The notes under the pieces: generated by a model
Databases searched by the model: none
What the model saw: the letters and a program-made list of their open reading frames with translations, nothing else
Told to the model about the DNA's origin: nothing
Made by a program: the position numbers and the translations under genes
Shown: positions 1,499 through 35,924 of the stretch, piece by piece
Numbering within the stretch: the stretch's first letter is position 1
Layout: each line of letters begins with the position of its first letter
Assembly (NCBI GenBank): GCA_937976305.1
Contig: CALJSB010000030.1
Coordinates: 1-42,383 of the forward strand
DNA length: 42,383 nt
Direction: 5' to 3'
DNA from: an uncultured Acidimicrobiales bacterium
GTDB taxonomy: Bacteria; Actinomycetota; Acidimicrobiia; Acidimicrobiales; SZUA-35

Positions 1499-1507
1499 CG
1501 GCCGCCC

Positions 1508-2746: not shown

Positions 2747-2761
2747 GCCCGACGGTTCGTG

Positions 2762-4354: not shown

Positions 4355-5704
4355 CTAGGCAGCGAGCTCGAGTGACTCGTCACTCGGTGCCTTGATGGCG
4401 GCGAACCACACGATGAGCAGGCCAACCATGCCGATCGTGGCGGCCGTGATGTTGCCGGCAACCCACAGCTTGATGGATGCCGAGACGATGCCAGCCGCCA
4501 CCATCATCGAGACGGGCCCACCCTTCCAAGCCACTCGGGGAGCCAGGAGTGCACGCTGTTCGAAGCGAGCAACGATGGCCACGATGGCGGCAAGGATCAC
4601 GAGCGAGAGTCCAATGAGCGGCAGCTTCTGCACCCACCAGTCAGCGGTGCCAACAGCAGCGGTCGGCAGGTTGCCGGTGGCGTACATGATCGCACCGGCG
4701 GCCGATGCGGCCGTCATGTGCCAGAGGTAGACAGACATTGCGATGGTGTTCGCTGCGACGACGCCGGCCCAGGCCCTTGGGCTATTGGCGAGCCAGCGAT
4801 TGATGGCTGGCGCAAGAGCAAGTGCGGTGGCTGAGTAGGCGGCACCGAAGAGCATGAGCGCGAGGGTCGGCGGGTTCGCCGGTGAGTGCTCGATTCCAGC
4901 AACGTTCACCATCGTGGTGGGGTAGGGGCCAACAGTGACGGCGGCCAGTGCGGCGACCCAGAGCCCGCCAGCGGTGAGCAGCAGATTGCGGCCGGTCGGC
5001 AAGAGGCCATCTCGCCATGCAAACCCTGCGACCTGGAACAGCAGCCAGCCGAGCACCCAGTTGAGCTGGGGCAGGTAGGGGACGCCGGCGAGGCGAACGA
5101 TCTCGAGCAGACCAAACAGCGCGACTCCGCCACCGGCGACAAGACCGGGGTTGCGGCGAAACGCCGGCAGCACGTAGGGGGCGATGGCGGTATCGATCGT
5201 GTAGTTGGCGAGGAACCACAGCGGAATGGCGGCAGCGACGGCGCCGGCGGCGGCGAGGTGGCCAACACCGGCTGCGCTGGCAATGGCGAGGATGCCGACC
5301 CAGGCGCCGGCGAGGATGACCGTCGGGGCGACCATCCGGCGAAGGCGGGCGACGACCCAGTCTTGCGGGCGACCGTCGTTCTTGGTGTGGGCATCGAGTG
5401 ACATGGCCGAGGAGAAGCCTCCGACCACGAAGAACAGTGGCATCACCTGGAAGAGCCAAGTGATCCACGACATCTGTGGCGCCTGCTCGAGGGCGTTACC
5501 GCCAATGACTTCACCGTCGGCGTTGATGGCAAGGGCAACGGCTGCCCAGTGGCCGAGTGCGACGGCGCACATGGCGACGGCTCGGTAGAAGTCAACCGCA
5601 CGGTTGCGGTCTGACTTGGCTGCAGCAGCCATCTCGGCCAGGTTGGGCCGATTCGTAGAAACCGGCTCGCTTGGCCGGGTGGTGGAGACGAGTGTCGAGG
5701 TCAT
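4355..5704 (-). CDS. acyltransferase family 3 (membrane O-acyltransferase) protein
   Basis: Polytopic membrane protein. N-terminal RAVDFYRAVAMCAVALGHW motif is typical of the acyltransferase_3 family. Alternative start at about 5632. Confidence 0.75.
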   Translation of the reverse strand: MTSTLVSTTRPSEPVSTNRPNLAEMAAAAKSDRNRAVDFYRAVAMCAVALGHWAAVALAINADGEVIGGNALEQAPQMSWITWLFQVMPLFFVVGGFSSAMSLDAHTKNDGRPQDWVVARLRRMVAPTVILAGAWVGILAIASAAGVGHLAAAGAVAAAIPLWFLANYTIDTAIAPYVLPAFRRNPGLVAGGGVALFGLLEIVRLAGVPYLPQLNWVLGWLLFQVAGFAWRDGLLPTGRNLLLTAGGLWVAALAAVTVGPYPTTMVNVAGIEHSPANPPTLALMLFGAAYSATALALAPAINRWLANSPRAWAGVVAANTIAMSVYLWHMTAASAAGAIMYATGNLPTAAVGTADWWVQKLPLIGLSLVILAAIVAIVARFEQRALLAPRVAWKGGPVSMMVAAGIVSASIKLWVAGNITAATIGMVGLLIVWFAAIKAPSDESLELAA

Positions 5705-5764
5705 GGCTCTATTGAGCCTGAGAAACCGCTTCTCGTCTGCTGGGGTTGGCCCCCAAACGGTCGT

Positions 5765-5788
5765 GGGGGATCCCCCAGAGCTCTGGGG
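5765..5788 (-). terminator. Overlapping perfect palindromes gggggatccccc / ccccagagctctgggg downstream of the DUF4214 gene (possible intrinsic terminator, no U-tract)
   Basis: Lies 18-40 nt past the stop of the 5806..6702 gene on the minus strand. GC-rich 12-bp and 16-bp palindromes. Confidence 0.3.
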
Positions 5789-5805
5789 AACGCTGAGCCT
5801 TGGCT

Positions 5806-6702
5806 CTAGCCGGCGAGCGAGCTCCAGTCGGCACGATCAACAGCGAGCGGCTGGGGTGAACGCACGACGATGGTCAATGTTTGAGCCGAACCCACCACTT
5901 CGATGCCAGTGATTGGCTGAGCGGGGGCAGGGCTGGCCAGATCTGCACTCCAGAAGAAGGCGAACGTTGACGGAGCGAGATCTCGACCGAGGAGGTTCTC
6001 GACTCGGTTGCCAGCTCCATTGAGGAGCCATGCTTCCCAGTTGACGGTGCTGCCGCCGAGGTTCACTCCGTAGACATCCACGTGACGGTGCTCGGCCGCA
6101 GTAGCAAAGCTTCCCGTGGCGCACGTCCAGACCGTGCCTGCGGGATACCACGAGAAGTAGCCGGCAAGTGGTGGTTCGGTGTTGGTGGTGACGACGTATT
6201 CCTTGCTCTCAGAGAACAACAGCATCACGTTGCCGCGAGAGAACTCGCCGGAATCAAGCCTGCCGACCCAGAACTCGAAGCCGCTTGGCTCGGCGGCACG
6301 GCCGAGAACGTTGCGGTAGACGAGCCGCACGAAGTCGGCGTTCGAGAGTGTTGAGTAGCGAGCGATGAACTCGTCAGAGCTGGCGAAGAAGTTGGACATC
6401 GACACCATGTCCCATTCGCCGGAGGCGAAGCCGTCGACCCAGAAGTCGAAACCAGCCTGGTCAGGGCTGCGGAGGAAGTAGGCCGAATACAGACGGTCGA
6501 TCGAGTCCGTCATTTGCGGACAGGTTGACGAATTCGCAGCCTGGGAAAGCACCGGAAGGGCTTGCGCCGCAGCGTTGTCGGACTGTGCCGCGCTGTCAGA
6601 GAGCGCAGCGTGGTTCGCTGCTGCTGCATCAGCACCACTCGGGTTCGAAAAGCCAAGCAGGCTCAACAGCAATGCACCGACAACAAAGATCCCACGCGCC
6701 AC
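5806..6702 (-). CDS. secreted protein with two DUF4214 repeats
   Basis: N-terminal signal peptide (MARGIFVVGALLLSLLGFSNPSGADA). Repeats RLYSAYFLRSPDQAGFDFWV and LVYRNVLGRAAEPSGFEFWV match DUF4214. A paralog lies at 25033..25884. Confidence 0.75.
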   Translation of the reverse strand: MARGIFVVGALLLSLLGFSNPSGADAAAANHAALSDSAAQSDNAAAQALPVLSQAANSSTCPQMTDSIDRLYSAYFLRSPDQAGFDFWVDGFASGEWDMVSMSNFFASSDEFIARYSTLSNADFVRLVYRNVLGRAAEPSGFEFWVGRLDSGEFSRGNVMLLFSESKEYVVTTNTEPPLAGYFSWYPAGTVWTCATGSFATAAEHRHVDVYGVNLGGSTVNWEAWLLNGAGNRVENLLGRDLAPSTFAFFWSADLASPAPAQPITGIEVVGSAQTLTIVVRSPQPLAVDRADWSSLAG

Positions 6703-10649: not shown

Positions 10650-11792
10650 TCAGCCAATGGATCGTGCCCATTGCCGAATGTCGTCGACGAACATGTCTGG
10701 CTGCTCAAACGCCGCAAAGTGTCCGCCGCGATCCTGTTCGTTCCAGTACGTGATGTTCGTGTAGTTCGGCTCCATCCAATGTCGCACCGGCGTGACGATC
10801 TCCTTGGGGTGCACCGTGACACCAGTTGGGATCGTCACTGGCTCTCGTTTGATCGACCCGAAGCTCTCCCAGTAGATGCGAGCGGATGAAGCGCCGGTTC
10901 CCGTGGCCCAATACAGCATCAGATTGTCGATCAGTTCGTGCCGGTCGAGCACGTTCTCGGGGTGACCGTCGCAGTCAGTCCAGGCCCAAAACTTCTCGAG
11001 CACCCACGCCGCGAGCCCGGCGGGCGAGTCCACCAAGCTGTAGCCGACGGTTTGAGGACGCGTGCGCTGCTGTGTGGAGTAGCCAGAGTCCCACTGTTGG
11101 TAGAAGGTGGCGCCAGCGATGGCGCGCTGCTCCTCTTCGGTTGGCTCGCCGTCGATGGCTGGACTGGTGCCCATGGCCAACGTGATATGGATGCCGTCGC
11201 AATGGTCAGGGTCTTGCCACCCGATCGAGGTGGTCACCGCTGATCCCCAGTCACCGCCCTGAGCGAGGTAGTGGTCATAGCCCAGGCGAGCCATCAGTTC
11301 TTTCCACGTCAGCGCGATCTTCTCGACGCCCCAGCCGGTGGTTGTGGGTTTGCCTGAGAATCCGAAGCCGGGCAACGAGGGGCAGATCACATGGAAGGCA
11401 TCGTCGGCCGAGCCGCCGTGGGTGGTTGGGTCAGCCAGCGGCTCAATGATCTTGTGAAACTCCACGATCGATCCGGGCCAACCGTGTGTGATGAGCAGCG
11501 GTGTTGCGTTCTCATGAGGTGAGCGCTGGTGGACGAAGTGGATGTCGACACCGTCGATCTCGGTCACGAAATGATCGAAGCGATTCAGAGCAGCTTCGCG
11601 AGCCCGCCAGTCGTAGTCGTTTGCCCAGGTGTTGCACACGTCCTTGAGCCAGGCGAGCGGCGTGCCCTGGCTCCAGTCGTCAACCAGTTCGGCCTCTGGC
11701 CAGCGGGTCGCCTGGAGGCGGGCTTTGAGATCGGTGAGAATCTCGTCGCTGACAGCAATCTCGAACGATCGAATATCGGTGGATGACCCCAT
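10650..11792 (-). CDS. epoxide hydrolase (N-terminal EH domain plus alpha/beta hydrolase)
   Basis: HGWPGS oxyanion-hole motif, Asp nucleophile in GGDWGS, and a length (380 aa) typical of microsomal-type epoxide hydrolases. Confidence 0.85.
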   Translation of the reverse strand: MGSSTDIRSFEIAVSDEILTDLKARLQATRWPEAELVDDWSQGTPLAWLKDVCNTWANDYDWRAREAALNRFDHFVTEIDGVDIHFVHQRSPHENATPLLITHGWPGSIVEFHKIIEPLADPTTHGGSADDAFHVICPSLPGFGFSGKPTTTGWGVEKIALTWKELMARLGYDHYLAQGGDWGSAVTTSIGWQDPDHCDGIHITLAMGTSPAIDGEPTEEEQRAIAGATFYQQWDSGYSTQQRTRPQTVGYSLVDSPAGLAAWVLEKFWAWTDCDGHPENVLDRHELIDNLMLYWATGTGASSARIYWESFGSIKREPVTIPTGVTVHPKEIVTPVRHWMEPNYTNITYWNEQDRGGHFAAFEQPDMFVDDIRQWARSIG

Positions 11793-11855
11793 GGGGTCGC
11801 AGCTTTGTGCATCACGACCAAGCCGTCCAGATTGAACGGTCTCGCTGCGCTCTTC

Positions 11856-12758
11856 TCAGTTGCGCAACTTCCGGCGTGACCACCAGCCGAGAGCGCTTGA
11901 GGTCGACTCGAGGCGCCGGCGCAGATCGGTCGCTTGTGCTCGATGGCGATCAACTTCGAGCGCGTGGCGGGTTCGTTGCTGGTCCAATTCTTCGTGCATC
12001 TCGTCGATCTGTATTGCTCGTTCCTCAGCGAGTGCCTCAGCCACCTTCAGGCCGGTGTTGGCCTCAGCAAGGTCAGCGACGACCCTGGTCATCTCGGCCT
12101 CTTGGCCTTCGATCACCTTGTTGAGATCGATGATCTTGGTCTCGTGCTGGCTGATCGTTCGTTCGTGCGTCTCAACCTTTTGGAGCGCCCGTTCCTTCTC
12201 GATCACTGCGTCGGTGAGATCGCTGCTCATCGTGAGCAGCCGTTCGAGTAGTTCGTTCAGGCTGTCGTCGAGTCCGGAGAAGATTGACTTCGCCTCACCG
12301 TTGCCGTGGGACACAACGAGTGTGTCTTTGTTGTCGGCGCCATTGCTTGCACCCTCGAGATCGGGATCTTCTGCAGTTGCCTCGGTATGCGAGTCGTCGT
12401 CCGCCGCGGCCACGATGTTCGTGCCGTCTGTGTTGGTCGTTGCCATGGGTTGTGTTGGCGTCTCCTCGACACCGGGTGCCGCCCCTTGGTCAGTTGCTTC
12501 TTGTGGTCGTCCGGGGGAGGCGGAAGGGTGTGAGCTCACCGCCTCGTCGAGATCTCGAAGGTCGATGACCCACCCCTCTCGCTCTGCGATTGGGGCGAGC
12601 GCGTCTCGGTGAACGACCCATTCGGTGTCGTCTGAGTCGTCGAGCTTGATGGCCTCGGGCAAGTCACCACGCTTGATTCGCCGATCAAGCGCATTGATTG
12701 TTACCCCGAGCATCTTCGCGACGCGTTGAAGTTCGAAATACTGGGCTCCGCCTCCCAT
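11856..12758 (-). CDS. helix-turn-helix (MerR/excisionase-like) DNA-binding protein with an acidic linker and a long C-terminal coiled coil
   Basis: N-terminal FELQRVAKMLGVTINALDRRIKRGDLP resembles HTH_17. Residues about 170-290 are heptad-like and E/R/L-rich. Confidence 0.55.
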   Translation of the reverse strand: MGGGAQYFELQRVAKMLGVTINALDRRIKRGDLPEAIKLDDSDDTEWVVHRDALAPIAEREGWVIDLRDLDEAVSSHPSASPGRPQEATDQGAAPGVEETPTQPMATTNTDGTNIVAAADDDSHTEATAEDPDLEGASNGADNKDTLVVSHGNGEAKSIFSGLDDSLNELLERLLTMSSDLTDAVIEKERALQKVETHERTISQHETKIIDLNKVIEGQEAEMTRVVADLAEANTGLKVAEALAEERAIQIDEMHEELDQQRTRHALEVDRHRAQATDLRRRLESTSSALGWWSRRKLRN

Positions 12759-12890
12759 CGCCCCGACACTATCGACCCGATGGGCAAATCTCCACGCCGT
12801 CCATCAACAATGCCGTGTCGATTCTTTGAGTGACGCGAATGTGGCCTGAGTGGCTAACGCATCGAGCCTGGGTGATGTCACAATCCGCAG

Positions 12891-13796
12891 GTGACTGCGG
12901 TGTCGGAGGGACGGACCACTACCCGCCTTCCTCTGCTCGTCATGGGGGTTGTGGTGTTGTCGTGGGGTGCTGGGCCCCCATTCACCAAACTCGTGACCGC
13001 GTCGCCACTCGTCGGCGTGTTCATTCGCTTCGGCATCTCGTTTCCGCTGTTGTTTGCCATGGTGTACCTGCGGGGTGGCACCGTGAGCCCTGCGCTGCTC
13101 AAACGCACAGCCCTCCCAGGGATTGCGTTCGGCATCAACCTGATCTTCGTATTTGCGACACTGCAGGAGGCAACGGTGGCGGTGTTGTCGACGATGGTTG
13201 CCGTGCAGCCCGCTCTGCTGCTTCTGGTCGGTGGCCCGATCTTCGGCGAACACGCGACACGGAAACAGATTCTCTGGAGCGGCGGAGGCATTCTCGGAGC
13301 CGCCATCGTGATTATTGGCGCCGGGGCCGAGGTGAGAGCTTCGACGCTCGGACTGGTGCTCGCATTCGCCGCCATGCTCACGTTTTCGGTGTATTTTGTG
13401 CTCACTCGATTGGCTCGTTCGACCACAAACGTCGATCCGATCGAGTGGATGGCCGGTATCAATCTGTGGGCGTTCGTGGCTGGCGCTGTGCCGAGCATCT
13501 TCTTCGTCAGTCGCAGCGACTGGGCTGAGTTCGGCGGCCTCGACTGGTTGTGGATCGCCATCGTCGCCTATGTCACCGGCGTGTTCGGTCACGTTGCTAT
13601 GAGCTGGGTGCACGGGTACATCGAGGCCGCTCGGTCATCGCTGTACCTGCTCGGGATGCACCTCGTGGCCGTTGGGCTGGCCTGGCCGATCCACGATGAG
13701 CCCTTCACGCTGTTGCAGGTCCTTGGCGGCGTTGTCCTTCTCGGCTCGGTCACCGCCGTCATGCGTCTCCCGAATCGCACAGTTGCTGCGTCCTGA
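12891..13796 (+). CDS. DMT-superfamily (EamA-like) transporter
   Basis: 10-TM hydrophobic profile with two EamA-like halves. Confidence 0.75.
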   Translation: MTAVSEGRTTTRLPLLVMGVVVLSWGAGPPFTKLVTASPLVGVFIRFGISFPLLFAMVYLRGGTVSPALLKRTALPGIAFGINLIFVFATLQEATVAVLSTMVAVQPALLLLVGGPIFGEHATRKQILWSGGGILGAAIVIIGAGAEVRASTLGLVLAFAAMLTFSVYFVLTRLARSTTNVDPIEWMAGINLWAFVAGAVPSIFFVSRSDWAEFGGLDWLWIAIVAYVTGVFGHVAMSWVHGYIEAARSSLYLLGMHLVAVGLAWPIHDEPFTLLQVLGGVVLLGSVTAVMRLPNRTVAAS

Positions 13797-13858
13797 TGCC
13801 GAGTCATCTCGCGGCGCGGGTGTGGACGGGGGCGAGGTGGCCTGAGTAGCGTTCGGTC

Positions 13859-14323
13859 ATGGCCGACGATGTGTTGACTGCCGCCGCCCGCCCACAACAC
13901 CGACTCGATGACAGCGCCATCACGTGGCGCCAGTTTCCGGGATACGAGGGGCTGTATTTCTGGGTGCTCGGCGTGAACGAAACCCGCCAGAAGGTCGACT
14001 TGTATTTCCGGCTGCTTCCTGGGGCTCGCTGCCCGAGCCATCGCCACGTTGGACCAACCGACACCCTCGTGGTCGAGGGAGAGCATCGGACGTGGGCCCG
14101 CGTTGGCGACAAGTGGGAACTCGATCAAGTGCGGCCTCCGGGGTTCTTCGGCGCCAACGAAGGCGACCACCTGCACTCAGAAGAAGGCGGCGAAGAGGGA
14201 GCGATCGTGTTGTTGTCGATGACAGCGGTCGACGACGTGATTTGGGAGACGTTCGACGACGCCGGCGATCTCGTCGACACGGCCACGCTCTCCGACTTTG
14301 CCCGGGTGCTCAGCAAGCAGTAG
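13859..14323 (+). CDS. cupin-domain protein (ChrR-like cupin)
   Basis: Cupin His-containing motif (CPSHRHVGPTDTLVVEGEH). Confidence 0.6.
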   Translation: MADDVLTAAARPQHRLDDSAITWRQFPGYEGLYFWVLGVNETRQKVDLYFRLLPGARCPSHRHVGPTDTLVVEGEHRTWARVGDKWELDQVRPPGFFGANEGDHLHSEEGGEEGAIVLLSMTAVDDVIWETFDDAGDLVDTATLSDFARVLSKQ

Positions 14324-23677: not shown

Positions 23678-24889
23678 CTAGTTCCGGGGTAGTTCCTTGA
23701 ACGGCGTCTCTTTTGCTGGGCCAGGTTCACGGGGAAGACCGAGCGCTCGTTCGCCGAGTGTGTTGCGCTGAATCTCATCCGTGCCGCCGCCGAGACTCAT
23801 GCCTCGGCAGTTGAGGATGTGATAGGCGAAGTAGTCCTCGTCGATTGCTCGCGGTGAGCCGTCGTCAGACCACGCCGGCGATGCCGGGAAGGCGAGTCGG
23901 GCCGCAGTGTCGGCGGCTGCCCGGCCCTGAATGGTCCGCCACAGCTTCCCGATCGACGGATGGACCCCTGTTTTCTTCAGGTAGCCCATGATCGTTTCGC
24001 CGGTGTAGAGCCGGGCCAGCTCTTGCCGGGTCACGGGGTCGTCGAGCTGGTTGCGATCGCGCGCCAATTCGATGAGTTGATCGACCGGTATCGGGACTCG
24101 GCCGGCCTTGGATCGCTGCCCGCTCGAGCCCCCAACGGAAGCGACACCGGTTTGGACTCGCTCGTGCGCGAGCAGCGCGACGGCAGTGCGCCAACCGCCG
24201 TTGACGTCGCCAACAACCCATGTCTTTGGGATGCGGGCCTCGTCGATGAACACTTCGTTGAATTCGGCCTCGCCCGTCATCTGGACAAGGGGACGAACCG
24301 TGACGCCGTCTTGCTCGACAGGGAGCACAAACATCGTGACACCACGATGTTTCGGTGCATCGAAGTCGGTTCGGGCCAACAAGATGGCGTACTGACTGTG
24401 CTGGGCTCCCGAGGTCCATACCTTCTGGCCCGTCACCACCCACTCGTCACCGTCGAGGTCGGCACGGGTGGCAAGCCCAGCAAGGTCCGAGCCGGCGCCA
24501 GGCTCGGAATACATCTGGCACCAGATGTCGTCGCCTCGCAGGCCGGGGCGCAAAAAGCGATCCTTGAGTTCGTCAGAGCCGAAGTCTCGGATCGTCGGCA
24601 TCGCCATACCCACGCCGATCCCGAAGACACTGTCTTCCCTCGGGACGAGTCCACGGCTCTCTTCGTTGTAGGCGGCTGCATATTCGGGACCGAGGCCTTG
24701 GCCGCCGTAGTCGGTCGGATAGTCGAGCCCAGTGAGTCCGGCGTCGTAGAGGGCAGCCCGCCACACCTTCGCCCGGTTGAGTTGGCCCACAACACCATCG
24801 AGCACAGTTGGTAGTTCGTTGTCGAAGAACGACCGAACGGCGAGGCGGAATTCGTCGACAGAGGGCGCGTTTTCGGTCACGGCGCACAT
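23678..24889 (-). CDS. acyl-CoA dehydrogenase family protein
   Basis: Three-domain ACAD architecture with a conserved middle beta-domain (WCQMYSEPGAGSDLAGL) and C-terminal catalytic region. Confidence 0.88.
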   Translation of the reverse strand: MCAVTENAPSVDEFRLAVRSFFDNELPTVLDGVVGQLNRAKVWRAALYDAGLTGLDYPTDYGGQGLGPEYAAAYNEESRGLVPREDSVFGIGVGMAMPTIRDFGSDELKDRFLRPGLRGDDIWCQMYSEPGAGSDLAGLATRADLDGDEWVVTGQKVWTSGAQHSQYAILLARTDFDAPKHRGVTMFVLPVEQDGVTVRPLVQMTGEAEFNEVFIDEARIPKTWVVGDVNGGWRTAVALLAHERVQTGVASVGGSSGQRSKAGRVPIPVDQLIELARDRNQLDDPVTRQELARLYTGETIMGYLKKTGVHPSIGKLWRTIQGRAAADTAARLAFPASPAWSDDGSPRAIDEDYFAYHILNCRGMSLGGGTDEIQRNTLGERALGLPREPGPAKETPFKELPRN

Positions 24890-25032
24890 TATCCCGGCGG
24901 GTTCAGCGAGCGAAAAGTCGCTCGGTCAAGGTGAGCCTGGTGGTGATGCAAAACATGCCCCATGGTCTCCTAGCGCGCCTCGTTGTACTCTTGCGCTTGC
25001 GCTCGACGGAGCGGAGGGAAAAGGTGAGGTTC

Positions 25033-25884
25033 ATGATTCGTCCACTGAAGCTGATCGCTGCGGCACTCTTGGCTGCGCTGATGGCGGCAACCTCGTTGGT
25101 CGCACCAACGCCGGCTTCTGCCGAGGGGCAGACACTGCCGCTTTCTGAATGCCCGTGGTTGACCGACCCGGTCGTCCGTCTCTACAGCGCCTATTTCCTA
25201 CGGGCTCCCGATCCGGGGGGTTTTGAGTTCTGGGTGGGGCGCGTCGACGAAGGTCAAAGTCTCGACGACATCTCGGACTTCTTCTCACAGGGCGAGGAGT
25301 TCGAGACCTTGTACGGCGACAAGACCAACGCCGAGTTTGTGGAGCTGATCTACCAGAACGTGCTCGAGCGTGCACCCGACCAAGGCGGCTTCGACTTCTG
25401 GTCAGGCCAACTCGATCAGGGTTTGATGACCCGTGGCCGCGTGATGCGGAACTTCTCCGAGAGTCCCGAGTTCGTCACCAAGACCGACACCAACCTGCCG
25501 CCCGCTGGCTTCTTCTCGACCTTCCCGTCCGGCACCGAATTCACCTGCGGCCGAGGTGGTGTCGTTGTCCCGTACGTTCAGTCACCGTCTTCGTGGTTTG
25601 TCTTGTTTGCGCCCCCCGGTGACGGCAGCGTGTGGCGGACCTTTGTCCACCCGATCGCGTCAAACGGTGAGTTCCTCGGTGATCCATCTCCGAGCCTCCA
25701 GGAAAACGACATCGATGCCTTCCGTTTGCACATCGGGTTCATGCCGGTGCGTGGCAACTTCTTGCAGGTCGGGCTGGCCGAAGACGATCTGCAGCTCTGG
25801 TCTGTCGTCGAGGTCGAGGGCAAGTTCGCATGCGATGCCCTCACCGACACCTGGGCCAACAACCCCTGCGGCATCAACCCGTAG
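25033..25884 (+). CDS. secreted protein with DUF4214 repeats (paralog of 5806..6702)
   Basis: AAGGTGAGG RBS, then ATG at 25033. Signal peptide MIRPLKLIAAALLAALMAATSLVAPTPASAEG. Repeats RLYSAYFLRAPDPGGFEFWV and LIYQNVLERAPDQGGFDFWS. Confidence 0.8.
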   Translation: MIRPLKLIAAALLAALMAATSLVAPTPASAEGQTLPLSECPWLTDPVVRLYSAYFLRAPDPGGFEFWVGRVDEGQSLDDISDFFSQGEEFETLYGDKTNAEFVELIYQNVLERAPDQGGFDFWSGQLDQGLMTRGRVMRNFSESPEFVTKTDTNLPPAGFFSTFPSGTEFTCGRGGVVVPYVQSPSSWFVLFAPPGDGSVWRTFVHPIASNGEFLGDPSPSLQENDIDAFRLHIGFMPVRGNFLQVGLAEDDLQLWSVVEVEGKFACDALTDTWANNPCGINP

Positions 25885-27699: not shown

Positions 27700-28368
27700 G
27701 TGATTGTGGGAAGACTGATTGAGGTGTCGTTGGGGTTCCCGACGGTCATTTTCACGACGCTCCTGCTCATCTCGCTCGGCTATTGGGTGATCGCAGCCTT
27801 CTCCGGAAACATCGATCTCGAAATCGATGCCGATGTCGGCGATGTCGGCACAGATGTTGGTGATGTCGGCGCAGACGGCGCCGGTGCTGATGGCGGTGGC
27901 TTCCTCGGCAATTTGCTTCAGAGTTTCGATCTGCACCACATGCCGATCACGGTCGTCATCACGGTCATCTCCCTCTTTGGCTGGGTCAGTTCGGGAATCG
28001 TCACGACACTCGCCGTGACAAATGGCGGGAGCGCCGGGATTCTCGTCGGCGTCTTCATTGCGCTCGGCGCCTTCGTCTTCTCGATCTTCATGGCCGGCCG
28101 AGTCGGCCGTATGTTGCGACCGTTCTTCGTGGCTGCGCTGCCGGTTCGGCGTGCCGATCTCATTGGCCGTATCTGCACCGTTCGCACCGGCAGGGTCGAC
28201 AAGTCATTCGGGCAGGCCGAGGTGAACGACGCCGAAAAGGCCGCCCACACCATTCAAGTTCGCTGCGCCGTCGACAACGAGTTGGTGGCAGGAAGCCAGG
28301 CTCTCATTGTGGATGTCGACAAAGAGGGGCGATTCATCGTCTCACCCGATGTCGACGGGCTCGTGTAG
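27700..28368 (+). CDS. NfeD-like (YqiJ/YuaF-type) membrane protein with C-terminal OB-fold
   Basis: N-terminal TM helices, an acidic DVGDVG repeat loop, further TM helices, then an NfeD-type beta-barrel tail (ICTVRTGRVDKSFGQAEVND ... IQVRCAVDNELVAGSQALIVDVDKEGRFIVSP). Confidence 0.75.
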   Translation: MIVGRLIEVSLGFPTVIFTTLLLISLGYWVIAAFSGNIDLEIDADVGDVGTDVGDVGADGAGADGGGFLGNLLQSFDLHHMPITVVITVISLFGWVSSGIVTTLAVTNGGSAGILVGVFIALGAFVFSIFMAGRVGRMLRPFFVAALPVRRADLIGRICTVRTGRVDKSFGQAEVNDAEKAAHTIQVRCAVDNELVAGSQALIVDVDKEGRFIVSPDVDGLV

Positions 28369-28454
28369 TTCGCAACCTCGGCTCTGTGGTGCAGGGTCAT
28401 CAACAGTCAGATCGCAAGTAACGGTTCTCAAACAAAGAGAAGAAAGAGGGACTC

Positions 28455-30371
28455 ATGTCCGGTGTTCTAGCCTTCGTAGTCGGCCTTGTGGTGATCGTTC
28501 TGGTCATCATTTTGCTGGTCGCGTTCGTCATTTCTCAGCTGTACCGCAAGGTGCCGCAGGGCAAGGCGCTCGTTGTCAGCACGACCCGCAACGTCGTTGT
28601 GTCGTTCACTGGTCGGACTGTTGTTCCGATCTTTCACAAAGCCGAGATCATGGACATCTCGGTCAAGACCATCGAGATTGACCGCCGCGGTACGGAGGGC
28701 CTGATCTGTCAGGACAACATCCGCGCCGACATCAAGGTCAACTTCTTCGTCCGAGTCAACAAGGCCGAGGAAGACGTCATCAAGGTCGCGCAGGCCATCG
28801 GCTGCGAGCGTGCCTCTGACCCGGTCACGCTCGAAGAGCTTTTTGCTGCGAAGTTCTCTGAAGCGTTGAAGACCGTCGGTAAGGCCATGGACTTCGTCTC
28901 GCTGTACACCGAGCGAGCATCGTTCCGCGATCGCATCATCGAAGTGATCGGCACCGACCTCAACGGCTACGCCCTCGAAGACGTTGCGATCGACTACCTC
29001 GAGCAAACGCCGCTCGAGCAACTCGACACCAACAACATTCTCGATGCCCAGGGCATCCGCAAGATCACCGAGCTCACCGCCGTCGAGCACGTCGCCACCA
29101 ACAACGCGGCGAACGACGAAGCCAAGATGATCACGGCAAAGAACGTCGAGACCCGTGAGGCCGTGCTTGAGCTCGAGCGCCAGCAGGCCGACGCCGAGGC
29201 CCGTCAACGTCGTGAGGTCGAGGCCGTGCGCGCTCGTGAGCAGGCAACGATTGACACGATCAAGGCCGAGGAGAAGCTGCGGGCCGAGATGGCCAATCTC
29301 GAGACCGACCAGAAGCTCGGCATCGAACAAGAGAACCTTCAGCGAGAGGTCGAGGTCGCCGGGAAGAACCGCGAGCGAGTGCTTGCCGTTGAGGCCGAGC
29401 GCGTTCGCAAGGCAGCCGAGCTCGAGGACATGAGCCGTCGCGTTGAGACACTCGCCGCCGAAAAGGCGCTCGAAGAAGAGAAGAGCACGATTGCCGACAT
29501 TCGCCGCAACCGAGTGGCTGTCGACAAGACCGTGGCTGAACAAGAAGAAGCCATCGCCACACTGCGAGTTGTCGAAGAGGCAAACCGTCAGCGCGACGCC
29601 GTTGTGATCGAGGCGGAGGCCATCGCCCAGGGTGATCTCGTCAAGGACATCAAGGCAGCCGAAGCAGCCGAGACGGCAGCAACGCATGAGGCAAAGCGTC
29701 AGCTCACGCTGGCTCAGGCCACGATGGAGTCGTCTGATCTCGAGGCCAGGGCCAAGATCCGTATGGCTGAAGGTGTGAAGGCTGAGGAGGCGGCACAAGG
29801 TCTCGCCGAAGTCGACGTGATGACCGCCCGGGCCGACGCTGAAGAGAAGCTCGGCATGGCCGAAGTCAATGTCGATCTGGCCAAGGCCGGCATCATCCGC
29901 GAGCAGGGTACAGCCGAGGCCGAGGCCGTCGAGGCCAAGCTCAAGGGCGAAGCAGCGGGTCTCCACGACAAGGCTGCCGCCATGAAGGAACTCGAAGGAG
30001 TCGGCCAGGAGCACGAGGAGTTCATCCGCAACCTCGAAGCTGAGACCAAGGTCCGCCTGGCCCAAGTCGATGCCAACGTTGGTGTGGCCACGGTGCAGGC
30101 CGAAGCCATGAAGTCCGGCCTCGAGAGTGCCGACATCGACATCGTCGGTGGTTCGGACATCTTTGTCGATCGGATCATCGGGGCCATTGGCCATGGCAAG
30201 GCAGTCGACGGGTTCGTCGAGAACTCCGAGCTCGCAACAACGGCCCTGGCTCCGTACGCCAGCGGTGACGAAGACCTCGTCGCCAAGATTGCCGAAGCCA
30301 TTTCCGGCCTTGGAGCCGACGGCATCCGCGATCTCTCCGTCGCCGACCTGCTTCGTCAGATCGGCAAGTAG
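28455..30371 (+). CDS. flotillin-family SPFH/band-7 protein (YqiK/FloT-like)
   Basis: N-terminal TM, an SPFH domain (QGKALVVSTTRNVVVSF ... ISVKTIEIDRR ... IRADIKVNFFVRV), and a very long E/A/K/R-rich coiled-coil flotillin region. Confidence 0.88.
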   Translation: MSGVLAFVVGLVVIVLVIILLVAFVISQLYRKVPQGKALVVSTTRNVVVSFTGRTVVPIFHKAEIMDISVKTIEIDRRGTEGLICQDNIRADIKVNFFVRVNKAEEDVIKVAQAIGCERASDPVTLEELFAAKFSEALKTVGKAMDFVSLYTERASFRDRIIEVIGTDLNGYALEDVAIDYLEQTPLEQLDTNNILDAQGIRKITELTAVEHVATNNAANDEAKMITAKNVETREAVLELERQQADAEARQRREVEAVRAREQATIDTIKAEEKLRAEMANLETDQKLGIEQENLQREVEVAGKNRERVLAVEAERVRKAAELEDMSRRVETLAAEKALEEEKSTIADIRRNRVAVDKTVAEQEEAIATLRVVEEANRQRDAVVIEAEAIAQGDLVKDIKAAEAAETAATHEAKRQLTLAQATMESSDLEARAKIRMAEGVKAEEAAQGLAEVDVMTARADAEEKLGMAEVNVDLAKAGIIREQGTAEAEAVEAKLKGEAAGLHDKAAAMKELEGVGQEHEEFIRNLEAETKVRLAQVDANVGVATVQAEAMKSGLESADIDIVGGSDIFVDRIIGAIGHGKAVDGFVENSELATTALAPYASGDEDLVAKIAEAISGLGADGIRDLSVADLLRQIGK

Positions 30372-30374
30372 CCG

Positions 30375-33300
30375 GTGAGCGACGCCTCTTCGGAAGCATC
30401 GGCTGATCCGCCGGGTGGCGGAGACGTCGGTGCCCCTGGCGAAGAACCTGCTGCCTCCAGCGGTGAGGCTGGCCAAGGCCAGATCGCACAGGGAACCTAT
30501 GAGCTCCTCCGCGGTCGACTCTCGACTGCGGCCAGCGAGTTGGTCAAGCGCGCCAATGCCCTGAACGACGAGCGGCTCGGTGTCTTTGGATCGTCCAAGC
30601 TCGAGTTGGTTGCCACTGAACGGGTGAGGACCGAGTCAAACGCCGTCCCTCGCGATGTCGTGTCGGTCGGCGATCAGTTGGTGCTGGCCTACAACGTGGC
30701 GGCGGGCATCAAGGCCGAGACGCGATCTGAAGACGTCTTCGCGGTGCATCACCTCGAGTTGGGTGATGGCCCAACCGACATCACGTTCAGCCCCAATCCT
30801 GAGGGCCTGGTCGGCTCTGTCCTGGCTGATGATCAGTTTCATCGTGACTTCGACGAGCTCTACACCTATTTCAAGGAGGCCAACCTTCAGCAGCTGTATC
30901 GCACCGCGCAACGAATGCTTGCGGTGTTCCGTACCGGCGGTGGGGCCAACGACGTTCGAGTGCTGCGGTGGCAGATCGAAAACGACGGGTCGCTCCGCTA
31001 CCTCGACGCCCGCGGCGAGCGAGATCACCGCTTTCCCGCCAACCAAGATGTTGAGTGGACCCTCACGACACGGGCCGAACACGTCGGTGGCCGCCACATC
31101 GAGATCGGCGACCGCATCATGGTCAACCCGCTCGGCGGCTCGCTCGACATCCGCCTCGACGACGGCGGCGAAGGCACCCTCCTTCTGAGCGACCGTCTCG
31201 AGCACGCCGACCAATCGCTCGCCGATTGTCAGATCAGCTGGGCCAAGGCCGGCGATCTTCGCCTCATCGACGTGTTGCCCTACGGCGAAACCCAGCACCG
31301 GTACTACATCGTCAACATGCTGGTGCACTCCGCCGTGCGGATGGATGCCCTTGGTGAGGCGTTCCGCCAGCTGCCAGACAATCAGGGCATCATCTTTCCC
31401 GACGGCGTCTATCTGAAGACGGGAGAGGTGCGCACGTTCGACCTCGCGGTCGACGAGATGGAACTGCTTGAGGTCGTGCGCTCGCCCAACGGCGAGGACG
31501 TCATGTATGTGTTCCACGAACGGATGGGTGGCCGCTCGATCCTGCTGCCCTACAACGTCGTGCGCCAAGAGGTCGCGGCGCCCATCTGGTGTCATGGTCA
31601 CTCACTCTTCGACGACGGCACGATGGTTGTGTTTCGAGAAGAGCCAGAGCCAACGACGATTCACCCACTGCAGATCTGGGTGACGCCATTTTCGAGCGAC
31701 GAGTGGTACGCCGCCCAACCTCGTGAGGCTACGAAGTTCGATCGCATTGGTAACGCCTCGTTGGTCAACGGCATCGCTGATGCGCTGGCCCTCGGCCGAC
31801 TGGTATCTGAAGTCGAGCCATCCACCGCCGTCTACGCCGACGTTCTGGCGTCCACCGGGCGGTTCATCGACGCTCACCATTGGGCAGCCGACGACGCAGT
31901 TGGCAACTTGGCCGAGCCGGCCAACGACATTCGCCTTGTTGCCGAGCAAGTCATCGACGAGTTCGAGCGGCTGCAAGAGGTGCAGGCCTCAGCTGCGGCG
32001 ACCTTGGCCGAAGCAAGCGAAGAAACCGAGCGGACCCTCGAGGATCTCCGCCTCAGCCCACCGAAGACCACCGAGGGATACATCGACGGTTTGGCCGACA
32101 TTCGCCGCCGCATCGGTCACCTGCACACCATTCGCGAACAGCGCGAGATTGATCTGGTTCGCGTTGACGAACTCATTGGTTCGGCCGAGACGGCCTACAA
32201 CGATCTGGCCCAATCTGCTGCCGCCCACCTCTCGACTGACAACGCGTTCGTTCCCTATCACGAGCGGTTGACAGAGATCTCCAACCAGACACCAAACCTT
32301 CTCTCGTCGCTCGAAGCAACTGAGCTGATGGACGAGGTCGACGCCGTCGCCGAATCCATGGATCTCGTCGCCGGCACCGTCGGCGACTTGGTCGTCGAAG
32401 ACCCGCGAGTCCGAACCTCCGTGCTCGAACAGGTCTCCGGCGTGCTGGCCGAGCTGAACCGTGTCCGGGCCGGGGCGGAAGGCAAGCGCGAAGAACTCGT
32501 GCAGTCAGAAACGGGTGCGGCCTTTGCCACTGAGCTCGGCTTGTTCGGCCAGTCGATTGCCGCCGCGGTCGGACGGGCCGACACGCCCGAAGCGTGCGAC
32601 GAAGCCCTCGCTCGCCTGCTCCTCCAGCTCGAGCAACTCGAAACCGCAGGCCCTCGGACCGAGGCGCAGCTCGACGAGTTGAACCAACGACGCGATCAGG
32701 TCACCGAAGCGCTTTCAGGTCGCCGGCAGCAACTGGTCGACGAACGCCAGCAGCGAGCCGAACGTTTGGTGTCCGCAGCCGACCGCACGCTCGTGCGCGT
32801 GGGGGAGCGAGCGCAAACGCTCGACTCTGTCGACGATGTCAACGGCTTCTATGCCGCCGACCCCATGGTCGCCCGCGTTCGCAAGCTGGTCGACGATCTT
32901 CGTGAGCTTGGCGAGCCTGTTCGAGCCGACGAGCTGCAGTCGAAGTTGGGGGCATCTCGCGACAATGCAGCCCGAGCGCTGCGAGATCGCCAAGATCTCT
33001 TTGATGGCGAAGCGGTCAAGCTCGGCCGTCATCGCTTCAGCGTCGATGACCGTGCCCGCGAACTCACCATCGTCCCGAGCGGCGAGCAACTCAACGCGGT
33101 GCTCACGGGTACTGATTTGCGCCTCCCCGTCACCGGCCCAGGACTCGACAACCTCAAAGAACTGTGGGATCAGCCACTGTCGTCAGAAAGCCCCGAGCTC
33201 TACCGATCGGCCTTCCTGGCCGGTGATCTGCTGCTCGACACGCTGCACGGCGGTGCCGACCCCGAACGAGACGAAGCCATCAGAACTGCGCTTCGCAACG

Positions 33301-35924
33301 AGGATGCCGATGCGATCCTCCGAATCGTGCGGGCCGAGGTCGACAACCGCCTCGACGAGGGATACGACCGAGGTGTCCACGACCTCGACGCAGCCCGCAT
33401 TCTCGAGGGCTTCGGAGCCGTCGCTCACGTGGCAGACACCCTGACGGCAACGAGCTCGACCAGAGCGGCCGCCCAGATTGCGTGGGCCCACCGCTTCTCT
33501 GACCACCAGCGTGATCGCTGGACCGACCGAGGACGGGCTGGAGCCACGCTGGGCCTCGACAAGGCCACCGTCGCCGAGCTCACTGAGGAACTGGCCGCTG
33601 ACTTGGCCCGGACCTCTGACGCTGAAGCTGAGGTGGCGATCGCTGATCGTCTGGTCGCCCGCTACCTGATGGCCGAGTTGCTGAACCCCGATGGTTTGGC
33701 GTTTGCCCAGACGCGGGCCGCATCGGAGCTCACCGACCGGTTCGCATCGTCGCCAGATGTGCGGGCCCTCGTCGACGGAATGGACGACGATCTCGGCGGT
33801 GTCACGACGGTGCTTGCCGACTACGTGAGCCGCGAAGTGCGCGACGTCGAGAGCCATCTGATCGATGAGATCGTCGCCGCACTTGTCACTCCTGATCTTC
33901 CCCGTCGCATTGTCGATGTCGAGCTCGCCGTGTCGGTCGACGGACTGATCGGCCGTCACGTCACGTTCGAAGCTGGCACGCTCGCTGATCGAGTCGATGG
34001 CCTACTCGAAACAGTCGACCGCCATCGGCTGGCAACGCTCCCTGCTCACCGAGCGTTTGCGGCGGCTCGTCGCGAAGCGCTCGATGATGTGAAAGACACC
34101 CTGCGTGTCGACGAGCTCGAGCCTCGGGTGCCCGAGGGCTTTGTTCGTAACCAACTGATCGACCAGGTGTATCTGCCGCTCATCGGCGACAACTTGTCCC
34201 GCCAGATCGGCACCGTTGACGATCGCACGGGCGCCCGATCTGGCCTGTTGATGTTGCTGTCGCCCCCGGGCTACGGCAAGACCCTGCTTGTTGAATACCT
34301 CGCCGATCGCCTCGGCATGGCCTTGGTCAAGGTGTCTGGCCCAGGTTTGGGTCACGACGTCACGTCGCTCGACCCCGGCCAGGCGCCGAGCGCGACTGCA
34401 GCCCGCGAGATCGAACGCATCAACTTGTCATTCGCCGTTGGCACCAACGTGATCCTCTACCTCGACGACATTCAGCACACCAACGCTGAGTTTCTCCAAC
34501 GGTTCATTGCCCTCTGTGATGCGCAACGGCGAGTCGAGGGTGTGTGGAACGGTGAGTCGACCTCGTTCGACCTGCGAGGCAAACGCTTCGCCGTCGTCAT
34601 GGCCGGCAACCCCTACACCGAGTCGGGTGAGCGGTTCCGCGTGCCGGACATGCTGGCCAACCGAGCCGACACCTACAACCTCGGTGACGTGCTCGAAGGC
34701 AACGCTGATCTGTTCGCCAAGAGCTATCTCGAGAACGCCCTCAGCTCGAACCCGGTGCTGGCGCCACTTGTCGGCACCGACCCTGGCGATCTCGAACGCT
34801 TCTTCCGTGCCGCCGACGGCGAGCCGCTCGACGAGTCGTCGCTCAAGCAGAGCTACTCGTCCGCTGAAGCCAACGAGATCGTCTCGGTGTTGCGTCACCT
34901 GCGCCAGGTGCAAGAGGTCGTTCTCACGGTGAACCGTCAGTACATCGCTTCTGCCGCCAGTGCAGATGCCTATCGGACCGAACCGCCGTTCCTCCTGCAG
35001 GGCTCGTACCGAAACATGGCGCGGATGGCATCCAAGCTGCTGCCCGCGATGACCGCCGAAGAGGTCGATCGGATCATCGATGAGCACTACACCGCAGAAT
35101 CGCAAGCGCTCACGGGTGCCGCGGAATCAAACCTGCTGAAGCTTGCTGAGATGCGGGGAACGATGACGGACGAGCAGCGAGCTCGCTGGGACGACATCTT
35201 GTCGACCTTCCGTCGTCAGCAGCGAATGGGTGGCGACGAGCGAGATCCAGCCACGCGGGTGGTTGCGGCCATCGAAAACGTGGCTGAGGCGCTCGGCAAT
35301 CCGGCATTGGCCGCCGCCAGTGCTCCAGCCCCGCCGCCTGAGCCCGAGCAGGTCGAGAAAGCAGAGCCAGTAGATCCGCCGCCTCCACCACAGATCGTGA
35401 TGCCGCCGATCGAGATGCCTCCCGTGGTGATTCCACCAATCGAGGTCAACGTCAACGCGCCTGAAACCGGAACTGACCCGGCCGCGGCTGCGGCGATGAT
35501 CTCCGCCATCGAGCGAGTGGCTGATGCTCTCAGCATGCAGGAGCCGCTTGCGGCCCGAGCCATCGACCTGCTCGCGTCTGAAGCGTCGAAGCGACGTGGG
35601 GGCGCCCGCGCTGCGAGCGTCGGGCCGTCTGTGCCCCCTCGACCGCCGGTGCCTCGGCCGCAGTCGTCAACCAGAGATCCGATTCGAGCGGCATCAGAGG
35701 CGCAGCCACCGTCGCAGAAGGCGGTAGCCAAACGGGCGGCTGCAAAGAAGCCGACCAAGGCCGCAGGCCATCGCATTGCTGCGAATCGTCGGGCCTCGGC
35801 GCCGCCGCAGCCGCCGCAGCAGTTCCGTCGGGACCACAAGCCAATGTCGCCAAAGCCTCCGGCACCGCCGGGGAGTGGGAAGCCTCCTCAAAAGCCGAAG
35901 GCGAAGAAGCCTCCGGCTGAGTAG
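30375..35924 (+). CDS. giant (1849 aa) protein of unknown function with an AAA_5 (MoxR/McrB/dynein-like) ATPase module near residues 1180-1340 and a Pro/Lys-rich C-terminal tail
   Basis: GTG start 3 nt after the flotillin stop. Walker A LLSPPGYGKT, Walker B ILYLDDIQ, and sensor/Arg-finger-like MAGNPYTESGERFRVPDMLANRAD. About 1150 aa of N-terminal sequence that I cannot assign. Tail contains PPPPPQIVMPPIEMPPVVIPPIEV and KPPAPPGSGKPPQKPKAKKPPAE. Confidence 0.85.
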   Translation: MSDASSEASADPPGGGDVGAPGEEPAASSGEAGQGQIAQGTYELLRGRLSTAASELVKRANALNDERLGVFGSSKLELVATERVRTESNAVPRDVVSVGDQLVLAYNVAAGIKAETRSEDVFAVHHLELGDGPTDITFSPNPEGLVGSVLADDQFHRDFDELYTYFKEANLQQLYRTAQRMLAVFRTGGGANDVRVLRWQIENDGSLRYLDARGERDHRFPANQDVEWTLTTRAEHVGGRHIEIGDRIMVNPLGGSLDIRLDDGGEGTLLLSDRLEHADQSLADCQISWAKAGDLRLIDVLPYGETQHRYYIVNMLVHSAVRMDALGEAFRQLPDNQGIIFPDGVYLKTGEVRTFDLAVDEMELLEVVRSPNGEDVMYVFHERMGGRSILLPYNVVRQEVAAPIWCHGHSLFDDGTMVVFREEPEPTTIHPLQIWVTPFSSDEWYAAQPREATKFDRIGNASLVNGIADALALGRLVSEVEPSTAVYADVLASTGRFIDAHHWAADDAVGNLAEPANDIRLVAEQVIDEFERLQEVQASAAATLAEASEETERTLEDLRLSPPKTTEGYIDGLADIRRRIGHLHTIREQREIDLVRVDELIGSAETAYNDLAQSAAAHLSTDNAFVPYHERLTEISNQTPNLLSSLEATELMDEVDAVAESMDLVAGTVGDLVVEDPRVRTSVLEQVSGVLAELNRVRAGAEGKREELVQSETGAAFATELGLFGQSIAAAVGRADTPEACDEALARLLLQLEQLETAGPRTEAQLDELNQRRDQVTEALSGRRQQLVDERQQRAERLVSAADRTLVRVGERAQTLDSVDDVNGFYAADPMVARVRKLVDDLRELGEPVRADELQSKLGASRDNAARALRDRQDLFDGEAVKLGRHRFSVDDRARELTIVPSGEQLNAVLTGTDLRLPVTGPGLDNLKELWDQPLSSESPELYRSAFLAGDLLLDTLHGGADPERDEAIRTALRNEDADAILRIVRAEVDNRLDEGYDRGVHDLDAARILEGFGAVAHVADTLTATSSTRAAAQIAWAHRFSDHQRDRWTDRGRAGATLGLDKATVAELTEELAADLARTSDAEAEVAIADRLVARYLMAELLNPDGLAFAQTRAASELTDRFASSPDVRALVDGMDDDLGGVTTVLADYVSREVRDVESHLIDEIVAALVTPDLPRRIVDVELAVSVDGLIGRHVTFEAGTLADRVDGLLETVDRHRLATLPAHRAFAAARREALDDVKDTLRVDELEPRVPEGFVRNQLIDQVYLPLIGDNLSRQIGTVDDRTGARSGLLMLLSPPGYGKTLLVEYLADRLGMALVKVSGPGLGHDVTSLDPGQAPSATAAREIERINLSFAVGTNVILYLDDIQHTNAEFLQRFIALCDAQRRVEGVWNGESTSFDLRGKRFAVVMAGNPYTESGERFRVPDMLANRADTYNLGDVLEGNADLFAKSYLENALSSNPVLAPLVGTDPGDLERFFRAADGEPLDESSLKQSYSSAEANEIVSVLRHLRQVQEVVLTVNRQYIASAASADAYRTEPPFLLQGSYRNMARMASKLLPAMTAEEVDRIIDEHYTAESQALTGAAESNLLKLAEMRGTMTDEQRARWDDILSTFRRQQRMGGDERDPATRVVAAIENVAEALGNPALAAASAPAPPPEPEQVEKAEPVDPPPPPQIVMPPIEMPPVVIPPIEVNVNAPETGTDPAAAAAMISAIERVADALSMQEPLAARAIDLLASEASKRRGGARAASVGPSVPPRPPVPRPQSSTRDPIRAASEAQPPSQKAVAKRAAAKKPTKAAGHRIAANRRASAPPQPPQQFRRDHKPMSPKPPAPPGSGKPPQKPKAKKPPAE

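Follow-up and report, generated by a model that had tools for sequence, protein, structure and literature searches.

A conserved operon linking an NfeD-like protein, a YqiK-type flotillin and a giant AAA+ ATPase in an uncultured Acidimicrobiales bacterium

The DNA analyzed here, referred to as the window, is a stretch of 42,383 nucleotides from an uncultured Acidimicrobiales bacterium (contig CALJSB010000030.1). Positions 27700-35924 of the window form a three-gene operon, probably for a membrane-associated machine, which combines an NfeD-like protein, a flotillin and a giant ATPase of the AAA+ type. According to the open reading frames (ORFs) and their translations, gene 1 (27700-28368, + strand) begins with GTG and encodes a putative YqiJ/YuaF-type NfeD-like protein of 222 amino acids. 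Gene 2 (28455-30371, +) begins with ATG and encodes a YqiK-type flotillin of the SPFH/Band 7 family with 638 amino acids, and gene 3 (30375-35924, +) begins with GTG and encodes a giant soluble AAA+ ATPase of 1849 amino acids. The first two genes are separated by an intergenic gap of 86 nucleotides, in which a Shine-Dalgarno-like sequence, GAAAGAGGG (28442-28450, +), can be read 4 nucleotides 5' of the flotillin ATG. A gap of 3 nucleotides separates the end of the flotillin stop codon (30371) from the GTG of the giant gene (30375). Three co-directional ORFs with this 3-nucleotide gap had been reported in an earlier reading of the same DNA (hereafter, the original prediction), and our coordinates confirm them. 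No terminator-like site was found at either junction of the three-gene unit, which is bordered upstream by a divergent gene for an AMP-binding enzyme and downstream by a convergent gene for a pyridoxal phosphate enzyme.

In a scan of one genome per species, relatives of the giant gene were detected at 588 or more loci, and the best 80 were taken with 8-kb flanks. These loci come from Actinomycetota, Acidimicrobiales, Myxococcota, Gammaproteobacteria, Acidobacteriota and other groups. In all 76 informative loci of this set, searches with the window proteins (tblastn) placed a co-directional flotillin homologue directly upstream of the giant gene; the remaining four of the 80 are uninformative, as the contig ends less than 400 bp from the giant gene. 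A flotillin gene also lies directly 5' of the giant gene on plasmid pQBR103 and on one Deinococcus plasmid. Even in four distant members, with an identity of about 31% over the whole giant protein and of 27-31% in the N-terminal DUF3686 domain described below, a gene of about 210 amino acids and a flotillin gene of 615-690 amino acids are found immediately upstream. The informative loci thus number 82 (the 76, the two plasmids and the four distant members), and in each of them, across at least five phyla, the flotillin gene immediately precedes the giant gene. This is the strictest linkage that a comparison of genomes can demonstrate. The consistent proximity of giant homologues to SPFH/NfeD genes, on which the original prediction depended, was therefore observed throughout. 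The small protein follows the same pattern, with an NfeD-like homologue located 5' of the flotillin gene in 63 of the 80 loci by tblastn and in 72 by clustering. Homologues number more than 1,000 for the giant protein and at least 8,000 for the flotillin, and the small protein recurs in position in these 63-72 loci; we therefore consider all three ORFs to be genuine genes, not reading frames that are open by chance in GC-rich DNA.

No fourth conserved gene family emerged from all-against-all clustering of every ORF in the 80 loci. The next-best genuine neighbor family, a PucR-like regulator, is present in 17 loci, all of them from Streptomyces, and the genes around the unit differ from lineage to lineage. 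Identity to the window copy is correlated between flotillin and giant protein across the 76 loci (r = 0.80), which suggests joint inheritance of the two genes. A chance or lineage-specific adjacency without joint function would draw on the general caution alone that adjacency is no proof of co-function. Against it stand the order and strand kept in every informative locus down to about 31% identity of the giant protein, the variability of all other neighbors, and the close packing of the two genes. When each ORF is called at its first in-frame start, 14 other loci show a 4-bp overlap of the two, and elsewhere the gap is mostly below 150 nucleotides. Because of the linkage counts across loci, this explanation is effectively refuted. 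The three proteins very probably work together, and the arrangement is best read as a functional connection of a flotillin scaffold with an AAA+ machine.

With respect to the giant protein, hydropathy analysis showed no transmembrane (TM) segment, and its homologues, about 1,600-1,900 amino acids long, carry the database name "DNA repair ATPase". Pfam assigns DUF3686 to residues 55-502 (E=7e-156), DUF7902 to residues 623-707 and AAA/AAA_5 to residues 1292-1415. NCBIfam models gave no match for any of the three operon proteins, and a sequence search of the PDB with the giant protein gave marginal matches to generic AAA domains (E about 0.007). The original prediction had named AAA_5 as the only recognizable module, which the DUF3686 and DUF7902 matches show to be wrong. 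An exhaustive domain search for DUF3686 recovered 637 cluster representatives at E≤1e-3. In nearly all of them the domain is N-terminal, and full-length carriers mostly have about 1,500-1,900 amino acids.

To obtain a structural view of the protein, we used AlphaFold2 models of residues 1-600 and 861-1660, which have a mean predicted local distance difference test (pLDDT) score of 87.7 and 88.2, respectively. In the model, a long helix (residues 35-71) precedes a divergent β-propeller-like domain that forms the core of DUF3686 (residues 77-436; 30603-31682, +). This is followed by an α-helical rod or bundle (residues 442-860; 31698-32954, +) that includes DUF7902 (32241-32495). The N-terminal 1150 or so residues, singled out in the original prediction for closer inspection, thus resolve in part into a DUF3686 region modeled as a β-propeller, with DUF7902 after it. 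The middle module (residues 861-1250; 32955-34124, +) is modeled as a small β domain at about residues 880-920 and a helical domain. This helical domain contains, upstream of the AAA+ core, a near-invariant motif, D-E-G-Y-x-R-G-V-H-D-x-D-A-A (residues 994-1007; 33354-33395, +). Among 86 family members, G1000, H1002, D1003 and D1005 are 100% conserved and most other positions 76-98%, and the motif may be a catalytic or docking site.

The AAA+ ATPase core covers residues 1255-1465 (34137-34769, +). It contains the Walker A motif SPPGYGKT (residues 1296-1303; 34260-34283, +) and the Walker B motif LYLDDIQH (residues 1361-1368; 34455-34478, +), in which an Asp-Asp pair replaces the usual Asp-Glu. 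The model places a β-hairpin at about residues 1386-1399, before the sensor 1 motif GNPYTE (residues 1411-1416), and Arg1430 lies in the sequence LANRAD. The sensor 1 region, GNPxxExG...P..L.NR, fits the MoxR consensus. Model secondary structure and conservation delimit a lid and C-terminal helical domain (residues 1466-1640; 34770-35294, +), and the invariant QGSYRNM motif in the lid (residues 1542-1548) is a candidate sensor 2. Across the 86 members, the core residues of Walker A, Walker B, sensor 1, the LANRAD arginine and QGSYRNM are 100% conserved; the LDDIQH core of Walker B is conserved at 86-100%, with the Asp-Asp pair at 100%. The best structural matches of the AAA+ module are dynein, midasin, CbbQ and NorQ, the last two of the MoxR group, which supports its placement in the dynein/midasin/MoxR clade, albeit by a modest margin. 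The original prediction was right in assigning this module to the MoxR/dynein type. Taken with the invariant motifs, these matches suggest that the giant protein is an active ATPase.

The C-terminal part of the giant protein is a lineage-specific tail (residues 1641-1849; 35295-35921, +) that is basic and rich in Pro, Ala and Lys, with 47 Pro and 41 Ala among its 209 residues. The tail is not conserved across the family (column conservation about 0.1) and is confined to the closest relatives, which are 1,816-1,888 amino acids long; most giant homologues stop at about 1,600-1,700 amino acids. It could be a lineage-specific extension that binds membranes or nucleic acids.

The family name raises the alternative that the giant protein is a true DNA repair ATPase and that its flotillin neighbor is incidental. 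The NCBI name of the homologues and the Pfam text for DUF3686 ("ATPase involved in DNA repair") speak for it. However, the protein has no DNA-binding or nuclease domain and no ABC head of the SMC/Rad50 type, no nuclease gene is found next to it, its ATPase is of the dynein/MoxR type of AAA+, and its invariant partners are two membrane proteins. In addition, the literature searched contained no mention of DUF3686 or PF12458, and hence no experiment was found on which the name could rest. Its probable origin is a spurious similarity of the rod to the coiled coils of SbcC/SMC proteins, a kind of match that also appeared in our PADLOC search. We therefore regard a role in DNA repair as hardly credible, and the database name of the family as probably misleading.

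The flotillin label needed checking because the window protein alone had no Pfam match, even at E=10, and no match in a PDB sequence search. The source records list its homologues as flotillin family, SPFH domain-containing or YqiK, and 7 of 26 orthologues match Pfam Band_7 (best 5e-11). When an orthologue profile was compared with E. coli YqiK, hhalign gave a probability of 99.9% (E=6.7e-31) over 399 columns, covering the TM helix, the SPFH domain and the coiled coil. The alignment runs through the Glu/Ala-rich helical region to residue 440. This profile comparison clearly identifies the product of gene 2 as a YqiK homologue and bears out its original designation as a flotillin. By hydropathy, the protein has a single N-terminal TM helix (residues 1-34), which is followed by Arg-Lys. 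The SPFH domain covers residues about 35-200; it is followed by a long helical region rich in Glu and Ala (about 200-540) and by a C-terminal segment that is conserved and includes invariant Gly565, Gly566 and Gly581. Most flotillin orthologues in the protein database likewise have no precomputed Band_7 match. Since both the window protein and most of its orthologues escape this model, Pfam-based surveys will undercount the subfamily.

An ORF of 669 amino acids lies antisense to the flotillin gene along its entire length (28467-30476, - strand). We rejected it as a gene and consider it a shadow ORF of GC-rich coding DNA; similar antisense ORFs opposite the flotillin recur at all related loci, where they form cluster 1 of the ORF clustering.

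For the product of gene 1, hydropathy analysis indicated three hydrophobic segments (residues about 12-36, 81-107 and 108-136), with basic residues after the last of them and a C-terminal β domain of OB-like type at residues about 150-215. Its Pfam match to YqiJ_OB (E=0.0066, 16.9 bits) falls under the cutoff of 25.4, and 2 of 27 orthologues match this model. The match to B. subtilis YuaF (PDB 2k14) is weak but correctly placed (E=0.23). An orthologue profile aligned with E. coli YqiJ over 140 columns, spanning TM2-3 and the C-terminal domain, with an hhalign probability of 90.3% (E=1.5e-6). The NfeD-like label of the original prediction is thus retained with moderate confidence: the profile match to YqiJ supports it, whereas the Pfam and PDB scores are weak. 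The protein appears to be a YqiJ/YuaF-like NfeD protein, on sequence evidence that is thinner than for the flotillin.

In several lineages, the unit is found together with genes of membrane-stress systems. In six gammaproteobacterial loci (L040, L057, L065, L073, L076 and L078), the gene immediately 5' of the NfeD-like gene encodes PspA/IM30, and in four of these it is preceded by a YjfI (CesT/Tir-like) gene. The Pseudomonas fluorescens megaplasmid pQBR103 (L081, L083; NC_009444.1 84437-97641), whose giant orthologue is 42% identical to that of the window, carries the order YjfI, PspA, rhomboid, DUF2491, DUF350, DUF1190, glutathionylspermidine-synthase-like (GspS), NfeD-like, SPFH, giant ATPase. 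This full ten-gene version sits on a well-studied plasmid and is a ready experimental system. In locus L088, the order is CesT_Tir, PspA, a 145-amino-acid gene, NfeD-like, flotillin, a β-lactamase-fold gene and the giant gene; the β-lactamase-fold gene (4662-5981) encodes 439 amino acids. A rhomboid protease gene directly follows the giant gene in three gammaproteobacterial loci (L057, 13208-13717; L073, 13376-13900; L074, 12901-13422), and the rhomboid gene inside the pQBR103 operon is at 7879-8433 of L083.

Other neighbors are restricted to single groups. In Streptomyces, the gene for the PucR-like regulator is divergently upstream (for example, L067, 3320-4402, - strand), a genus-specific synteny that makes it a candidate regulator of the operon. 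Also in this genus, a gene for a TrkA-like membrane protein of 660 amino acids is found near the 3' end of the giant gene in nine loci, on the same strand in seven (for example, L032, 13095-15086, + strand). Both were rejected as a universal fourth partner, being specific to Streptomyces. The DUF2491, DUF350, DUF1190 and GspS genes of pQBR103 were rejected as universal partners as well, as they are absent from the 80 loci.

A comparison with the literature showed that the architecture had been reported before. Ravi et al. 2024 (mSystems 9:e00847-23, PMC11237479; bioRxiv 2020) described an operon of a CesT/Tir-PspA dyad and three further genes, one of which encodes a 3TM protein typified by YqiJ/YuaF. 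The same authors noted that abbreviated operons lacking PspA are widely distributed and may work with PspA encoded elsewhere (PMC11237479). Their example from Dokdonia donghaensis (PMC11237479 supplement) consists of a YqiJ/YuaF-type protein, then a protein with Band-7, coiled-coil and flotillin parts, then a β-propeller, coiled-coil and AAA ATPase protein. They also drew a parallel to Vps4/ESCRT-III and inferred a link to membrane stress from the gene context (PMC11237479). The window has the same three proteins, architectures and gene order; it differs in the extra Pro-rich tail of about 200 residues on the giant protein and in the absence of the CesT/Tir-PspA dyad from both the operon and the 42-kb window, and is therefore a case of the abbreviated form of the described kind. 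Our structural results match theirs, and the family is connected to their operon through pQBR103 and L088. The architecture must therefore be considered already described, contrary to the view in the original prediction that this was not a described system. Overall, the conserved unit and the AAA+ type proposed there hold, whereas the single module and the undescribed architecture do not. The published description is based on gene context, without linkage counts, structure or experiments; what we add is the structural assignment of DUF3686 as a β-propeller, the grouping of the AAA+ module with dynein/MoxR proteins, and the linkage counts.

Considering all of these observations, we propose that the operon encodes an ATP-driven remodeler that works on a cytoplasm-facing flotillin/NfeD scaffold and acts in membrane-stress maintenance, an interpretation to which we assign a probability of roughly 0.55. 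The YqiK-type flotillin, with its one N-terminal membrane helix, and its NfeD partner would assemble into an oligomeric SPFH scaffold at the cytoplasmic side of the membrane. This scaffold may form an oligomeric cage like other SPFH/NfeD pairs, of which QmcA-YbbJ has a cryo-electron microscopy structure cited in PMC13086221. The globular parts of the flotillin and the NfeD-like protein would be exposed to the cytoplasm, an orientation that we infer from the basic residues found after the flotillin anchor and after the last membrane segment of the NfeD-like protein. The giant soluble protein would serve as the dedicated ATPase, with its C-terminal AAA+ module presumably forming a ring. From this ring, the helical rod and the N-terminal β-propeller would extend, probably as the docking or client-binding end on the scaffold. 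Binding and hydrolysis of ATP could then assemble, open or dismantle the flotillin lattice or client complexes held there, and PspA polymers are a possible extra target where a PspA gene adjoins the operon. Physical contact, ring formation, cytoplasmic orientation, remodeled target and physiological role are all elements that we infer.

The locations of the proteins, a soluble giant protein and two membrane proteins, are compatible with such a scaffold. The membrane-stress context comes from the PspA genes next to the operon in the six gammaproteobacterial loci, pQBR103 and L088, and Ravi et al. (PMC11237479) independently made the same contextual inference. In a narrower and more tentative version, the giant ATPase might be an assembly/disassembly factor for flotillin lattices, and for PspA polymers where these are co-encoded, acting as a counterpart of Vps4 with its propeller docked on the flotillin C-terminus; we see this as possible but doubtful.

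Several observations weigh against the proposed remodeler. Gene linkage is silent on physical contact and on what is remodeled. The 42-kb window contains no PspA or YjfI (CesT/Tir) gene, so that the link to the phage shock protein (PSP) response in this organism rests on other lineages. Asp-Asp Walker B motifs resemble those of DnaA/initiator-type, switch-like ATPases, and the motif may therefore indicate slow, switch-like hydrolysis rather than a processive motor. MoxR ATPases usually have a partner with a VWA/MIDAS domain, and none was found in the operon or in any conserved neighbor. Finally, our literature search found no experiment on any family member.

The same linkage evidence applies equally to a protease-free chaperone or extractor that acts on membrane-protein clients in a flotillin microdomain, as a counterpart of HflK/C-FtsH or SLP2-PARL-YME1L, with the lattice itself not being the target. 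Such a role would accommodate the rhomboid genes downstream of the giant gene or within the pQBR103 operon, and the β-lactamase-fold gene inserted between flotillin and giant gene in L088. It would also suit the S. aureus FloA/NfeD proteins, which are reported (PMC11222466) to stabilize unfolded proteins. The rhomboid and other accessory genes are, however, confined to a few lineages, no protease is universally linked in the 80 loci, and a client is not identifiable from sequence. This explanation overlaps with the scaffold remodeler and differs from it solely in the target of remodeling; we consider it rather unlikely.

We also considered an anti-phage or conflict system, in which the giant NTPase would sense infection and the flotillin/NfeD module would be the effector or the platform. 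The patchy distribution across distant phyla suggests horizontal transfer, copies are carried on large plasmids (pQBR103, Deinococcus and Streptomyces), and a UvrD helicase and a DNA methyltransferase are encoded a few genes upstream on pQBR103. In L085, the operon is found beside RNA ligase, kinase-HD, R2K, HipBA and TelA genes. The giant protein also gave a weak PADLOC match to LmuB (E=7e-4). This match is limited to the helical rod, and we rejected it as a sign of a defense role; the flotillin and the NfeD-like protein had no match at all, and no system of PADLOC-DB 2.0 was matched. Moreover, Pfam detects no nuclease, protease, TIR, pore-forming or other effector domain in the operon, no defense genes are conserved around the 80 loci, and no member of the giant family was found among 50,697 phage genome records. 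The 86 members show very even conservation and lack the variable sensor regions that characterize defense NTPases, and the neighbors in the window are genes of housekeeping metabolism. These findings make a defense function distinctly improbable.

The setting of the window operon is chromosomal, and its other genes encode housekeeping functions, including ClpP, ribulose-phosphate epimerase, pyruvate kinase, a major facilitator superfamily transporter, a Ser/Thr kinase and dehydrogenases. The GC content is about 0.63 and even throughout, and the nearest relatives are from uncultured Acidimicrobiales. Two separate DUF4214-domain proteins are encoded elsewhere in the window (5806-6702, - strand; 24808-25884, + strand). 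The neighborhood of L085 is of a stress/conflict type, unlike this housekeeping setting: RNA ligase, AAA_33/HD kinase-phosphatase-like and R2K genes are located on one side of the operon, and HipBA and TelA genes on the other (575-3232 and 11191-14303).

The role of bacterial flotillins is still debated, and the tie of this flotillin/NfeD pair to one large ATPase with unvarying catalytic motifs, seen in every informative genome, points to an energy-dependent step in flotillin function. If the narrower version is true and the giant protein is an assembly/disassembly factor, it would be the first regulator of a flotillin scaffold known to consume energy, and would open a direct experimental route to the function of bacterial flotillins. 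The family occurs in tractable hosts, namely Streptomyces, Myxococcus, Proteus mirabilis, Vibrio campbellii and P. fluorescens with pQBR103, in addition to the large plasmids mentioned above.

Among known systems, the closest to the first two genes are E. coli YqiJ-YqiK and B. subtilis YuaF-FloT, which are homologous to gene 2 and probably to gene 1, have the NfeD-like gene first and share the single N-terminal flotillin anchor. Unlike the window, E. coli yqiJK has no AAA+ gene downstream, where sibD/ibsD are found instead. The window flotillin is also longer than YqiK (638 versus 553 amino acids), and its conserved C-terminal 190 or so residues do not align with YqiK. No partner of the AAA+ type is mentioned in a survey of prokaryotic SPFH subfamilies from 2009.

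The pairing of an SPFH scaffold with an AAA+ machine is a theme common to HflK/C-FtsH, prohibitin-m-AAA and SLP2-PARL-YME1L. The rhomboid gene of the gammaproteobacterial versions recalls the mitochondrial SLP2-PARL-YME1L complex, in which an SPFH protein, a rhomboid and an AAA protease are combined. The comparison with HflK/C-FtsH and prohibitin/m-AAA made in the original prediction holds as an analogy of theme, not as membership: in contrast to FtsH-type enzymes, the window ATPase lacks both a protease domain and a TM segment, and its single AAA+ module is of the dynein/MoxR type. HflK/C, in addition, faces the periplasm, whereas the window scaffold probably faces the cytoplasm.

With the MoxR class (RavA, CbbQ and NorQ), midasin and dynein, which include its best structural matches, the giant protein shares the modeled β-hairpin before sensor 1 and, if the presumed ring forms, an ATPase ring with a long extension ending in a binding domain. 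It is 5-6 times longer than MoxR proteins, has the Asp-Asp form of Walker B, and carries its propeller and rod N-terminal to a single AAA+ module. As a functional analogue, Vps4/ESCRT-III offers a further comparison. The giant ATPase belongs to another AAA+ clade than Vps4, has no MIT domain, and has flotillin rather than PspA as its universal partner; what the two have in common is an AAA+ ATPase encoded with membrane-lattice proteins, and PspA, a member of the ESCRT-III superfamily, adjoins the operon in several lineages.

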